Source: an uncultured Bacteroidales bacterium
GTDB taxonomy: Bacteria; Bacteroidota; Bacteroidia; Bacteroidales; UBA10428
DNA length: 50,316 bases
Assembly: GCA_965602045.1 (NCBI GenBank)
Contig: CBFCXR010000001.1
Coordinates: 1 to 50,316, forward strand
Direction of reading: 5' to 3'
Each line of letters begins with the position of its first letter. The stretch's first letter is position 1. Shown one piece after another: positions 1-31,593 of the stretch. The notes under the pieces were generated by a model. The model did no database searches. It worked only from the letters and a program-made list of their open reading frames with translations, and had not been told where the DNA came from. The translations under genes were made by a program, and so were the position numbers.

Positions 1-307
1 CTCGCTTCTTGCTGTTCGCTTCTTGCTGCTCGCTGTTCATTGTTCGTTGTTCGCTTCTTGCTGCTCGCTACTCGCTACTCGCTACTCGCTTCTTGCTGTT
101 CGCTTCTTGCTGCTCGCTGTTCATTGTTCGTTGTTCGCTTCTTGCTGCTCGCTACTCGCTACTCGCTACTCGCTTCTTGCTGTTCGCTTCTTGCTGCTCG
201 CTGTTCATTGTTCGTTGTTCGCTGCTCGCTGCTCGCTGCTCGCTACTCGCTACTCGCTTCTTGCTGCTCGCTTCTTGCTACTCGCTGTTCATTGTTCGTT
301 GCTCGCC
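1..307. repeat. Heptanucleotide-phased tandem repeat array (about 44 in-phase 7-mers) organised as an 84-bp higher-order unit; runs off the left edge of the window
   Basis: Read directly: ctcgctt cttgctg ttcgctt cttgctg ctcgctg ttcattg ttcgttg ttcgctt cttgctg ctcgcta ctcgcta ctcgcta = 84 bp. Units 1-84 and 85-168 are identical; 169-252 and 253-307 are diverged. No indel breaks the 7-nt phase. The + strand is almost A-free, so all three + frames are open. Confidence 0.9.
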
Positions 308-7868: not shown

Positions 7869-8486
7869 TTACTCTTCAGAAAATAATAACTTGATTAATC
7901 TTGGCCTTAAATAATGCTTGAAGAAGTTTATAAAATCTTCTTCAGTAAAGCTGATTTTGAAGCTGCCATCTTTTGGACCTATCTGAAAACCGGATTTAAT
8001 ATCGTTATCAAACCGGATTGCTAAGCCCCCTTTTAGTAAATCTTTTGCAGAACTGTTAAAGTATTGTTGTAAGTCTTTTTCTTCTTTTGCAGGCAAAAGT
8101 ACCGAAATATCAATAGCTTCATCCGATGAGGATTTCCAGTTTTTTATTGTGATTTCAATCAGTTTCTTAATAAAAGTTTTGTCATTAAATACATTACTGA
8201 CAGTTGCACTAACAATTTTATCATTAACTAAATCTGTAATCCGTTGTTTTAATGCGTTTATCGCTTGTTTAGAGGAAAGTATAAGTTCTGCTTCAGAATT
8301 TGATTTGATTTCGTCAGATTTTTTTTTCGCATCATTAATAATTTTTTCAGCTTCTTTCTTTGCATTAGCAACTATTTCCAGGGCTTCTTTCTTTGAATCG
8401 CTTATTATTTTTTCTGCTTCAGTATTTCCTTTTGAAATACCTTCTTTAAATATTTTTTCCGTTAGTTCCTGTAATCTATTCTGCAT
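7869..8486 (-). CDS. ntpE: V-type ATPase subunit E (peripheral stalk)
   Basis: 205 aa with a long Lys/Glu/Ala coiled-coil N-terminus and a globular C-terminus. First gene of the operon. Confidence 0.85.
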   Translation of the reverse strand: MQNRLQELTEKIFKEGISKGNTEAEKIISDSKKEALEIVANAKKEAEKIINDAKKKSDEIKSNSEAELILSSKQAINALKQRITDLVNDKIVSATVSNVFNDKTFIKKLIEITIKNWKSSSDEAIDISVLLPAKEEKDLQQYFNSSAKDLLKGGLAIRFDNDIKSGFQIGPKDGSFKISFTEEDFINFFKHYLRPRLIKLLFSEE

Positions 8487-8589
8487 TTTCCAATTTTATT
8501 AATTGATATTTAAGAAGAAAAACTAGAATTTATTAATTCCTGATAATAATAATATATTAGACGAATATGACTTAGTTTTTGAAAAACAT

Positions 8590-8597
8590 CAAATTTA
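8590..8597 (-). promoter_or_regulatory. Candidate Bacteroidota -7 box TAAATTTG (TAnnTTTG) for the V-ATPase operon
   Basis: The + strand reads caaattta, about 104 nt upstream of the ntpE ATG. No convincing -33 TTTG seen. Confidence 0.3.
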
Positions 8598-8681
8598 GTG
8601 AAAAGTTTATTCATACTATAAAGATTACGGAATGTTTTGCATTTATTTCGAACTAATATAAATCAAATTCGATGCTGGTTA

Positions 8682-8849
8682 CTTGTTTCTCGTCACTCGC
8701 TTTTCGTTCTTTATTTTTCGTTGTTCGCTATTCGTTGTTCGCTATTCGTTGTTCGCTATTCGTAAATCGTAAATCGTCAATCGCAAATCGTCAATCGCAA
8801 ATCGTCAATCGTTAATCCTTTTATCTTTTGTCTTTTATCTTTAGTCTTG
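8682..8849. repeat. 24 in-phase heptanucleotides (nTCnnnn) in successive sequence variants, including a 14-mer x3 and a 14-mer x2.5
   Basis: cttgttt ctcgtca ctcgctt ttcgttc tttattt (ttcgttg ttcgcta)x3 ttcgtaa atcgtaa (atcgtca atcgcaa)x2 atcgtca atcgtta atccttt tatcttt tgtcttt tatcttt agtcttg. TC stays at positions 2-3 of every heptad across 168 bp. Confidence 0.9.
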
Positions 8850-8975
8850 TGTAATTGTCATTTGCTTCGCTGTTATTTGTAGTCATTAATAGTCATCTGT
8901 AGTAATTTGTTGCCAGTTTGGTAAACAATAGAACAATATAGTAATTCAGTGTACACGCCAACTTATTTCACAGTA

Positions 8976-8983
8976 TAAATTTG
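8976..8983 (+). promoter_or_regulatory. Candidate -7 box TAAATTTG for the Na/Pi cotransporter gene
   Basis: Exact TAnnTTTG match 77 nt upstream of the ATG at 9060. Same octamer as the divergent V-ATPase candidate. Confidence 0.3.
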
Positions 8984-9059
8984 AATGATAATGTTCTTAT
9001 TTATTATTTGAATAATAATTTTTGTAGATTTAAAACAAAAAACTGAAAATATATTTATT

Positions 9060-10763
9060 ATGAATTATGGTGTACTTGATATATTAAGATTACTGGGCGC
9101 TCTGGGCTTATTTCTTTTTGGCATGAAACTTATGAGTGAATCCCTACAAAAAGTAGCCGGGGCAAAAATGAGGAATATCCTTTCTGCAATGACTTCAAAC
9201 AGGTTCATGGGTGTTTTTACAGGACTCATTATTACATCAATAATTCAATCTTCATCTGCTACTACTGTAATGGTTGTTAGTTTTGTTAATGCGGGATTAT
9301 TGTCACTGGCAGAATCTATTGGTGTAATTATGGGGGCAAACATTGGTACAACAGTAACTGCATGGCTGATTTCCATTCTTGGATTTAAAGTAGATATTTT
9401 TTCATTTACTTTTATATTAATAGGTTTAGGATTACCGGTTTTATTTTCAAAAGATAAAAGAAAAAGTTCCTGGGGGGAAATATTAATTGGATTCTCTTTG
9501 ATATTTATGGGATTACATTACTTAAAACTATTTACTCCTGATATTAATAACAATCCTGAATTATTAGAATATTTATCAAGGTACTCCCAATCCGGCAGCT
9601 TGTCAATATTTATTTTTTTGACTATCGGCGCATTTTTAACAATGATTATTCAATCATCAAGTGCTGTTATGGCACTTACACTGGTTATGTGTTATAACGG
9701 CTGGATTTCATTTGATATGGCTGCAGCGATGGTTCTGGGACAAAATATAGGAACAACTATAACGGCAAATTTGGCTGCCATAGTTGCTAATACTTCAGGG
9801 AAACGTGCCGCAAGGGCTCACTTTATTTTTAATATAGTAGGAGTAATCATTGTTTTATTTGTATTTAATCCTTTTTTAAAATTAATTAATTGGTTTATTA
9901 TTGAAGTAGGCCTAAATTCTCCTTATTCTTCTGCTGTCCAAACGGCTGATCAAGCAGCCCGGGCTATACCAATTGCATTGTCAATTTTCCATACTGTATT
10001 TAATATACTTAATACTGTGGTTTTAATATGGTTTGCTTCGTTTATAATGAAGATTACAATGATTATGGTACCTGATCGTGATGAAGATGAAGAATTCAGC
10101 CTTAAATATATTAATACGGGATTGCTTTCAACAGGAGAGTTATCAATACTGCAGGCCAAAAAAGAAATAGTGCTTTATGCACGGCGCGCTACAAAAATGT
10201 TCGAGTTTGCCAAAGAATCATATATAGCAAAATCAGGTAAGAAATACAATAAGTATATAGGAAAAATCAGGAAATATGAAGACATATCCGATAGAATGGA
10301 AGTTGAGATAGCATCATATTTGACAAGAATATCAGAAGAATCTGTCAGTTCTTCCGGTTCTGAAAAAATAGCAAATATGCTTAATCTTATAAGTAATATT
10401 GAAAGCATAGCTGATTCAAGTAATAAACTGGCTGATACAATTGAAAGGATGACTTCACGCAAAGTTGAATTTACAAAAGATATGGACAAGAACGTAAATA
10501 AACTGTTTTTGCTCGCTGATAGAATTTTAGCGGAAATGAATGAAGGATTACGAAAGGAAGAGACTTCAATATTATCCAGGAATTATATAATGCTCAGAAA
10601 AGAGCTTCAGAATATTGAAGAAAATATGCAGGAAGATCACTTTAAAAATTTGAGAAAGGGAAAATATAAATGTGCTGTTGGAATAATATATTCTGATATT
10701 TATAGCGAAATCATAAATCTGGGAAATTACGCCTTAAACGCAACTGAATTGTTTATTCAATAA
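9060..10763 (+). CDS. Na+/phosphate cotransporter family protein (NptA/YjbB type) with C-terminal PhoU-like domain
   Basis: 567 aa with the duplicated QSSSAT/QSSSAV re-entrant motifs of Na/Pi-II-related carriers, then a hydrophilic helical tail of about 200 aa. Confidence 0.88.
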   Translation: MNYGVLDILRLLGALGLFLFGMKLMSESLQKVAGAKMRNILSAMTSNRFMGVFTGLIITSIIQSSSATTVMVVSFVNAGLLSLAESIGVIMGANIGTTVTAWLISILGFKVDIFSFTFILIGLGLPVLFSKDKRKSSWGEILIGFSLIFMGLHYLKLFTPDINNNPELLEYLSRYSQSGSLSIFIFLTIGAFLTMIIQSSSAVMALTLVMCYNGWISFDMAAAMVLGQNIGTTITANLAAIVANTSGKRAARAHFIFNIVGVIIVLFVFNPFLKLINWFIIEVGLNSPYSSAVQTADQAARAIPIALSIFHTVFNILNTVVLIWFASFIMKITMIMVPDRDEDEEFSLKYINTGLLSTGELSILQAKKEIVLYARRATKMFEFAKESYIAKSGKKYNKYIGKIRKYEDISDRMEVEIASYLTRISEESVSSSGSEKIANMLNLISNIESIADSSNKLADTIERMTSRKVEFTKDMDKNVNKLFLLADRILAEMNEGLRKEETSILSRNYIMLRKELQNIEENMQEDHFKNLRKGKYKCAVGIIYSDIYSEIINLGNYALNATELFIQ

Positions 10764-27830: not shown

Positions 27831-27917
27831 TAAATTAATTCAATTTAATAGATCAGGTTGCTGGTTACTTATTGCTGGTGGCTCGCCGAATCTTGCCTGA
27901 CTGAAGGCAAATGACAA

Positions 27918-27944
27918 TAATTCCTGCCAGACGGGCAGGAATTA
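27918..27944. other. Perfect 11-bp inverted repeat (stem-loop, 5-nt loop) in the thrS/DPP-IV divergent intergenic region; function unknown
   Basis: taattcctgcc-agacg-ggcaggaatta. A second 6-bp hairpin, ttgcct-gactga-aggcaa, lies at 27893-27910. Confidence 0.5.
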
Positions 27945-28103
27945 CAAAGAATAAATAATAAAAAACAAATAACAATTTTCAAATAATGAATATTTTAGTA
28001 ATTGGAATTTATGTATTATTTGATATTTGTTACTCACTATAATACTTGAAATATTAATTGAGGAATAATAAAATCCAACAATTTATAAAAAACTATAAAT
28101 CAA

Positions 28104-31502: not shown

Positions 31503-31593
31503 TACTGTTCAGGGTTCTGAGTTGAGTATACAGTGTTCAGTGTATTGAGTACAGTGTCCGGAGTTCAGAACGCAGAATCCAAAATACTGAACA
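31503..31593. repeat. 13 in-phase heptads (consensus CAGWGTW) filling the spacer between the two tRNA-Leu genes
   Basis: tactgtt cagggtt ctgagtt gagtata cagtgtt cagtgta ttgagta cagtgtc cggagtt cagaacg cagaatc caaaata ctgaaca. The terminal 7-mers tgttcag/ctgaaca are complementary. Confidence 0.8.

Follow-up and report, generated by a model that had tools for sequence, protein, structure and literature searches.

Long simple-sequence repeats (LSSRs) are tandem arrays of short units that extend far beyond the length expected by chance, and heptanucleotides are given as their most abundant class in prokaryotes in the account of PMC4679880. As relayed in that account, the LSSRs of Mrazek, Guo and Shah (2007) have units of 5-11 nt among which heptanucleotides are dominant, occur as many arrays per genome, lie mostly in non-coding DNA, are phylogenetically sporadic and are proposed to originate by slippage. 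Composite intergenic heptamer arrays that are absent from close relatives have also been described in some Bacteroidetes (PMC4679880). The heptamers of MacGregor (2015; PMC4679880), found in Beggiatoaceae, Cyanobacteria and some Bacteroidetes, comprise TAACTGA together with accompanying heptamers; in Gramella and Aequorivita they form long intergenic arrays of mixed heptamers, and where close relatives share the gene neighbourhood, their spacers are shorter and lack the repeats. A further family of tandem heptamers, dispersed through intergenic DNA, is that of the cyanobacterial STRR (short tandemly repeated repetitive) sequences. Among promoter regions, a 7-bp repeat is represented by (ATCTTTC)n, which is located between promoters P2 and P1 of hmw1A and hmw2A of Haemophilus influenzae and has an isolate-variable copy number; this single perfect unit overlaps -10/-35 boxes, falls within the 5' UTR of the main transcript and has a demonstrated effect on expression (PMC8262952).

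The heptad tract considered here is located in the genome of an uncultured Bacteroidales bacterium, between the first gene of a V-type ATPase operon and a divergently oriented Na+/Pi cotransporter gene. The window, which is the whole stretch of 50,316 nucleotides that was analysed, represents contig C1 of G000, a metagenome-assembled genome (MAG) of 345 contigs and 2.86 Mb with 33% G+C that is 92.65% complete. The relatives of this genome are also MAGs, with the labels Bacteroidales, Prolixibacteraceae or Marinilabiliales. The features of the locus are as follows.

7869-8486, minus strand: first gene of the V-type ATPase operon, encoding an E/B-like stalk subunit of 205 aa.
8572-8663, minus strand: promoter block upstream of the V-ATPase operon, ~81% identical to congener G005; the tract starts just upstream of it.
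8590-8597, minus strand: TAAATTTG, candidate Bacteroidetes-type -7 box of the V-ATPase operon; the top strand reads CAAATTTA.
8671-8688, plus strand: array head, made of GGTT-type degenerate heptads (GATG CTGGTTA CTTGTTT).
8682-8849, no strand assigned: heptad tract of 24 units, in blocks running CTCGnnn, (TTCGTTG TTCGCTA)x3, ATCGTAA / ATCGTCA / ATCGCAA and TRTCTTT.
8736-8811, no strand assigned: hypervariable core, holding every 7-, 14- and 35-nt indel among near-identical strains.
8850-8940, plus strand: composite tail of GTCATT-type 8-12-mers, a TTTGTTGCCAGTTT segment and AACAATAG-type octamers.
8976-8983, plus strand: TAAATTTG, candidate -7 box of the Na/Pi cotransporter gene.
9060-10763, plus strand: Na+/Pi cotransporter gene with a PhoU domain, encoding 567 aa.

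The 168-bp tract is confirmed as a real tandem array of 7-base repeats. When it is cut into 24 heptads from 8682, TC falls at heptad positions 2-3 in 18 units, 17 of which carry TCG, and the binomial probability of at least 18 of 24 heptads with TC at a fixed phase is ~4e-18 given the TC frequency of the window. An initial annotation of this DNA had all 24 heptads keeping TC in phase, which was right as to the array and overstated as to its regularity: heptads 1 and 5 are without TC, and in the last four (8822-8849) TC is displaced by 1 nt because one step measures 8 nt (8816 to 8824). Tandem Repeats Finder reported overlapping arrays of period 7, 14 and 28 over 8697-8848, with a 14-nt unit present in 3.4 copies (100% match) at 8717-8763 and a second 14-nt unit in 3.7 copies (94% match) at 8760-8811. 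The tract is not an assembly artefact, since it is present in at least seven independent assemblies. An Rfam search of 8300-9200 at E values up to 1 matched no family, and folding of both strands yielded structure no greater than in shuffles (z-scores +0.5 and +0.6).

The two octamers flanking the tract are indeed found at 8590-8597 (minus) and 8976-8983 (plus), facing outwards, and its placement between two outward promoter candidates, as first annotated, holds as well, each being paired with a TAnnTTTG box in a congener. The counterpart of the V-ATPase box is TAAATTTG in G005 and TATATTTG in G006, G001 and G007, and the Na/Pi box aligns to TACTTTTG in G005. TAnnTTTG occurs 77 times in the window against 77.7 expected from composition, so the octamers are rated as promoter candidates by position and conservation in relatives only. 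Judged by motif position, the tract is upstream of both candidate -7 boxes, which are outside it, and overlaps no core promoter element. The end of the tract towards the V-ATPase operon is 85 nt from the V-ATPase box and 196 nt from the V-ATPase start, and the opposite end is 127 nt from the Na/Pi box and 211 nt from the Na/Pi start. A scan for sigma-70 promoters and terminators, a method uninformative for Bacteroidetes, gave nothing above shuffles.

Many arrays of this kind occur elsewhere in the genome. A sequence search of the draft genome returned 47 matches to the tract, the best other copy being 81% identical over 86 nt of low-complexity sequence, with tail matches of no more than 51 nt. 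Runs of at least five CG at period 7 number 18 in the genome and zero in three Markov-1 simulations, and the strong short-unit tandem repeats of the genome are dominated by period 7 (10 arrays) and period 14 (4 arrays). In total there are about twenty such arrays, all between long ORFs; about ten lie at contig ends, indicating that the arrays break the assembly. Pooling of 233 units gives the consensus HTCGYHD, and 95% of them have T at heptad position 2, a conservation that may reflect shared ancestry or a constraint; the high conservation of positions 3-4 is inflated by ascertainment, the arrays having been picked by periodic CG. Arrays adjoin start codons, stop codons or both, in gene pairs that are divergent, tandem or convergent; the genes beside them are mutually unrelated, and the TCG strand runs in either direction relative to the genes. 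No replication-strand bias was seen, as 13 of 23 arrays have their TCG strand in agreement with contig GC skew, in a test that is weak on short contigs. Within the window, further period-7 stretches are found at 27859-27990 and 31506-31543 (Tandem Repeats Finder rows 27940-27986 and 31506-31543), and the head motif TGCTGGTTACTT recurs at 27859.

When set against the described systems, the locus is closest to the LSSRs. Its unit is tandem and within 5-11 nt, the array extends beyond chance length, the many arrays of the genome are mostly non-coding, and whole-unit variation is found among strains, as detailed below; compared with the LSSRs as that account portrays them, the arrays here are composed of blocks of related heptads in recurring order with octamer tails, and the host is an uncultured Bacteroidales. 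The likeness to the arrays of MacGregor (2015) extends to the long intergenic runs of mixed heptamers and to close relatives with the same gene neighbourhood and shorter, repeat-free spacers. The unit nevertheless differs from TAACTGA, which occurs as 656 single copies and never in tandem in this genome, and the tract, at the distances given above, is not situated directly before a start codon, within a few nucleotides upstream and in forward orientation, as TAACTGA arrays are. Tandem TAACTGA, ATCTTTC, CCCCAGT, GGGAATC and TTGGTCA are all absent from the genome; without CCCCAGT or TTGGTCA tandems, and in a Bacteroidales MAG rather than a cyanobacterium, the tract shares with STRR sequences a dispersed intergenic tandem-heptamer habit and falls outside STRR proper. 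Like the hmw1A repeat it varies in copy number among isolates, but its units are heterogeneous and it appears to lie upstream of both divergent promoter candidates. The tract is most likely a member of the heptanucleotide LSSR / STRR-like class.

Comparison with relatives indicates that the tract is lineage-specific. Five congeners have the divergent V-ATPase / Na-Pi arrangement without the tract, their intergenic regions measuring 340 nt (G005), 227 nt (G003), 382 nt (G006), 278 nt (G007) and 383 nt (G001) compared with 573 nt in the tract-bearing genome; the closest congener, G004, is outside this comparison, as only 130 nt of its contig precede the Na/Pi start and V-ATPase genes are missing from its bin. 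Pairwise alignment to G005 recovered two common segments, 8572-8663 (~81% identity, containing the V-ATPase -7 box) and 8974-9032 (containing the Na/Pi -7 box), that are separated by 310 nt in the tract genome and by 81 nt in G005, and the tract and tail therefore represent ~230-260 nt of lineage-specific DNA between common promoter blocks. The initial annotation had named absence of the tract from orthologous loci, together with unchanged expression, as telling against its proposal, and the first half of that comparison turned out so in these five congeners. Its suggested tie to the ion-pump operon and the Na/Pi carrier is not supported: arrays adjoin many unrelated genes, the five congeners manage the same arrangement without the tract, and across the order any period-7 array within 1.5 kb upstream was found at 2-3 of 80 Na/Pi loci, with unrelated sequences.

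Similar turnover is apparent at other positions. Three more orthologous intergenic regions were compared. There, G000 and G004, and in part G005 and G003, have differing 7- or 8-nt arrays, and G001 and G006 have short spacers without repeats, a pattern suggesting that short repeats tend to expand, and to turn over fast, across the subclade. The intergenic region upstream of the G004 orthologue (locus L129, contig C491) of the G000 gene at C3:15601-16395 is filled by more than 30 tandem copies of the octamer GCTGAATG; the corresponding G000 region has CGA-type heptads, and the start-proximal AGCGAAT AACGAAC AGCGAAA is common to both species. In a distant relative, the MAG Bacteroidetes bacterium DOLZORAL124_46_22 (locus L108), a 334-nt array of GGAAGAC x47.7 occupies 827-1160 upstream of a Na/Pi cotransporter gene, an unrelated heptad array at a comparable position. 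Loss of mismatch repair was considered as a cause of repeat richness and rejected: all eight genomes of the genus have MutL, and MutS1 occurs both in the repeat-rich G004 and G005 and in repeat-poor genomes, which leaves no correlation. MutS1 above the family cut-off is found in five of the eight genus genomes and not in the G000 assembly, for which the likeliest reason is assembly incompleteness, given its completeness and its 345 contigs.

Variation among strains provides the most direct view of how the tract changes. Contigs encoding an identical 205-aa V-ATPase E protein were obtained from ten independent assemblies, six of which span the full intergenic region, and four further contigs end within the tract or tail. 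Intergenic lengths in the window and the six assemblies are 573, 574, 573, 553, 546, 539 and 532 nt. The flanks of these seven complete regions are nearly identical, differing by three substitutions and one base of an A-run, and all other length differences are 7-, 14- and 35-nt gaps inside 8736-8811. The net allele changes are 0, -21, -28, -35 and -42 nt, which yields five length classes at the locus, of 24, 21, 20, 19 and 18 heptads, and distances between the two -7 boxes of 378, 357, 350, 343 and 336 nt. Short-read assemblers can miscount repeats, though this is unlikely here because perfect stretches are no longer than 47 nt and the alleles differ by substitutions too. The A-run lies in the V-ATPase leader (region of 8517), reads A5 or A6 among strains and is the sole non-heptad indel of the 573-nt intergenic region.

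Change by whole heptads among near-identical strains matches the prediction of slipped-strand mispairing or unequal exchange, and we therefore infer slippage by whole heptads as the mechanism of gain and loss; in this respect the initial annotation, which had proposed a slippage-prone element that alters promoter spacing, agrees with the natural alleles. The same behaviour is seen in a sister array of the window:

1-306, plus strand: heptad array of CTCGCTN, about 44 units with an 84-nt higher-order unit, at the contig end.

Among contigs sharing the DUF456 protein, the flanks of this array are identical and its alleles number 9 units (in four samples), 18 and at least 44. Gain and loss of whole 7-nt units between strains that are otherwise identical is thus directly documented in nature for such arrays. 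Contig C146 (6519-6593) ends in 55 nt that are the first 55 nt of the window, and the gene of C146 (a CAP-domain protein of 230 aa) directly follows DUF456 in other assemblies; by this overlap and gene order, C146 and C1 are neighbours split by the heptad array.

Variability of this kind between divergent promoters raises the prospect of a contingency locus, in which heptad number would tune both promoters by way of the distance to upstream elements, of helical phase or of supercoiling coupling. Such a locus would present what is seen here, namely five or more alleles whose lengths differ by whole heptads in near-identical strains, and a tract situated between two promoter candidates with counterparts in relatives, high allelic diversity at a divergent promoter region being expected of a contingency locus also; hmw1A, where more repeats between P2 and P1 give less expression (PMC8262952), is the precedent. 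The tract, however, overlaps no core promoter element, sister arrays located after stop codons or between convergent genes are equally variable, and the five congeners manage without it, all of which disfavour a rheostat of the hmw1A type. The units are, moreover, heterogeneous rather than a single perfect repeat. Allele unit differences of 0, 3, 4, 5 and 6 cover all three residues modulo 3 and show no sign, among the seven regions, of restriction to multiples of 21 nt (a fixed helical face), and with alleles in all three helical phases, a coupling of the two promoters that depends on phase is disfavoured. Tuning of the two promoters by heptad number is accordingly considered unlikely; if true, it would amount to population-level bet-hedging for ion and phosphate transport.

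The internal organization of the arrays bears on a different possibility, that head, ordered blocks and tail constitute a mobile composite element (MITE- or REP/BIME-like), a copied unit inserted between the promoters that slippage only modifies. On the TCG strand, the blocks run in the order GGTT-type head (CTGGTTA ...), CTCG, TTCG, ATCG, TCTTT, GTCATT-type 8-12-mers and CAATAG-type octamers, with adjacent blocks one or two substitutions apart, and outside the locus described here 22 class pairs are concordant with this order versus three that are discordant; the order is not preserved in relatives. The head motif is also found at the 5' end of other arrays (C146, C51, C18, C3 and window 27859), and the composite tail is shared in part with C140, C289 and C159 and more extensively with C161. 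Its non-repetitive segment, window 8880-8930, is 86% identical to C161 over 51 nt, and a 29-nt segment is 97% identical to C140, on which grounds some copying between array loci seems to have occurred. The extra DNA is also fairly clean-edged relative to G005. A mobile element is nonetheless highly improbable. Terminal inverted repeats and hairpins are absent, the only inverted pairs found being promoter-box-like ones of 9-13 nt; there are no near-identical full-length copies in the genome; and the head motif is not enriched as such. A 10-nt inverted repeat bracketing the block of DUF456 and V-ATPase genes is at chance level, 150 such pairs being observed as opposed to 62-111 in shuffles. Sister species have differing arrays at the same intergenic regions, which in-situ turnover fits better than repeated insertion.

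Several further sequences were encountered apart from the arrays. The head motif CTGGTTAC has 77 copies in the genome, mostly in coding sequence, and is hence not a dispersed signal; the tail 10-mer TTGCCAGTTT is mostly in coding sequence as well. The 3' part of the tmRNA gene (G000 C156:54-455, tag peptide GENNIALAA) holds CTGGTTACTTGTTT, a 14-nt exact match to the tract head at window 8675-8688. The 3' ends of tmRNA genes are known integration sites; the match is probably a coincidence (roughly 2-5% chance). Terminator-like hairpin units consisting of an A-run, GGGGACAGCCCC and a T-run are dispersed in G000 (C65, C41, C93, C255, C111, C42 and C122) and also occur at locus L137 of G004; they are often tandem at 21-33-nt spacing and adjoin short ATCGTAA arrays in three places (C130, C30 and locus L011 of G002). 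Five G000 loci (C133:6160-6359, C21:18720-18852, C191:3355-3457, C305:1530-1602 and C213:2893-2964) carry period-30 tandem arrays with the palindromic core GGATACTATCC, for which a CRISPR identity was rejected as the period is too short.

The conservation of the heptad core could also be read as the footprint of a protein-binding or chromosome-structuring array, in which a DNA- or single-strand-binding protein would occupy each TCG-centred heptad and the arrays would act as insulators or nucleoid anchors. Conservation of T at heptad position 2, at the level given above, goes with block-wise drift at positions 1 and 5-7, several genera of the family have TCG-centred heptads, and cold-shock proteins bind heptamer repeats with one protein per unit (PMC4679880). 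Against this, the TCG arrays were found by searching for TCG, and arrays with other cores exist in relatives, where a reversed control pattern also matches and GGAAGAC, AATTTTG and TAAACTN arrays are found. The pattern of six TCG-N4 units is present in G000, G004 and G005 and once in G002, and is absent from G001, G003, G006 and G007, so that four of the seven congeners are without a match and a fifth has one; in other genera it is sporadic, with 212 matches in one complete genome. Copy number is unconstrained, and the arrays are inconsistent in where they lie and which way they point relative to genes, and in their strand relative to contig GC skew. No candidate protein emerged, and XisH and XisI, a lead taken from PMC4679880, were not detected by a search that had no positive control. 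The initial annotation had offered an insulator or protein-binding array among its readings, and nothing tested points to either; a binding or structuring role is regarded as very unlikely.

The comparisons show that the tract is part of a dispersed family of arrays, that five congeners do not have it and that strains differ in its length by whole heptads. It is, with good though incomplete confidence, one array of a genome-wide, lineage-restricted heptanucleotide simple-sequence-repeat family, at most a variable spacer and without a dedicated V-ATPase or phosphate-transporter role. In the mechanism proposed, heptad arrays of consensus HTCGYHD would grow, shrink and mutate in dispensable intergenic DNA as whole 7-nt (or 14-nt) units are gained and lost through replication slippage or unequal exchange. 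Here, the ~230-260 extra bases between two promoter blocks otherwise common to relatives are taken up by array and tail, and with the tract upstream of both core promoter candidates, its effect would be limited to the distance between the divergent promoters. It is from this upstream position that the tract is taken to be at most a variable-length spacer, and it appears to have no specific regulatory function.

Slippage in situ does not by itself predict a block order that is common across loci, and the order therefore argues for copying between loci or for a directional process in addition. An elaboration of this kind, in which the arrays form a polar, modular system of intergenic repeats that spreads by copying from locus to locus within one environmental Bacteroidales subclade and heptad hypervariability serves as a population-level expression rheostat, is decidedly unlikely; if it were true, it would represent phase-variation-like bet-hedging in a free-living, non-pathogenic bacterium.

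The arrays have several consequences for work on these bacteria. They make good strain markers, and contigs of Bacteroidales metagenome bins frequently break because of them. A repeat located between promoters invites a regulatory story, and comparisons at the genome, species and strain levels place this one instead in a general class of fast turnover. Such arrays are also a tractable place for testing the effects of heptamer repeats on neighbouring promoters.
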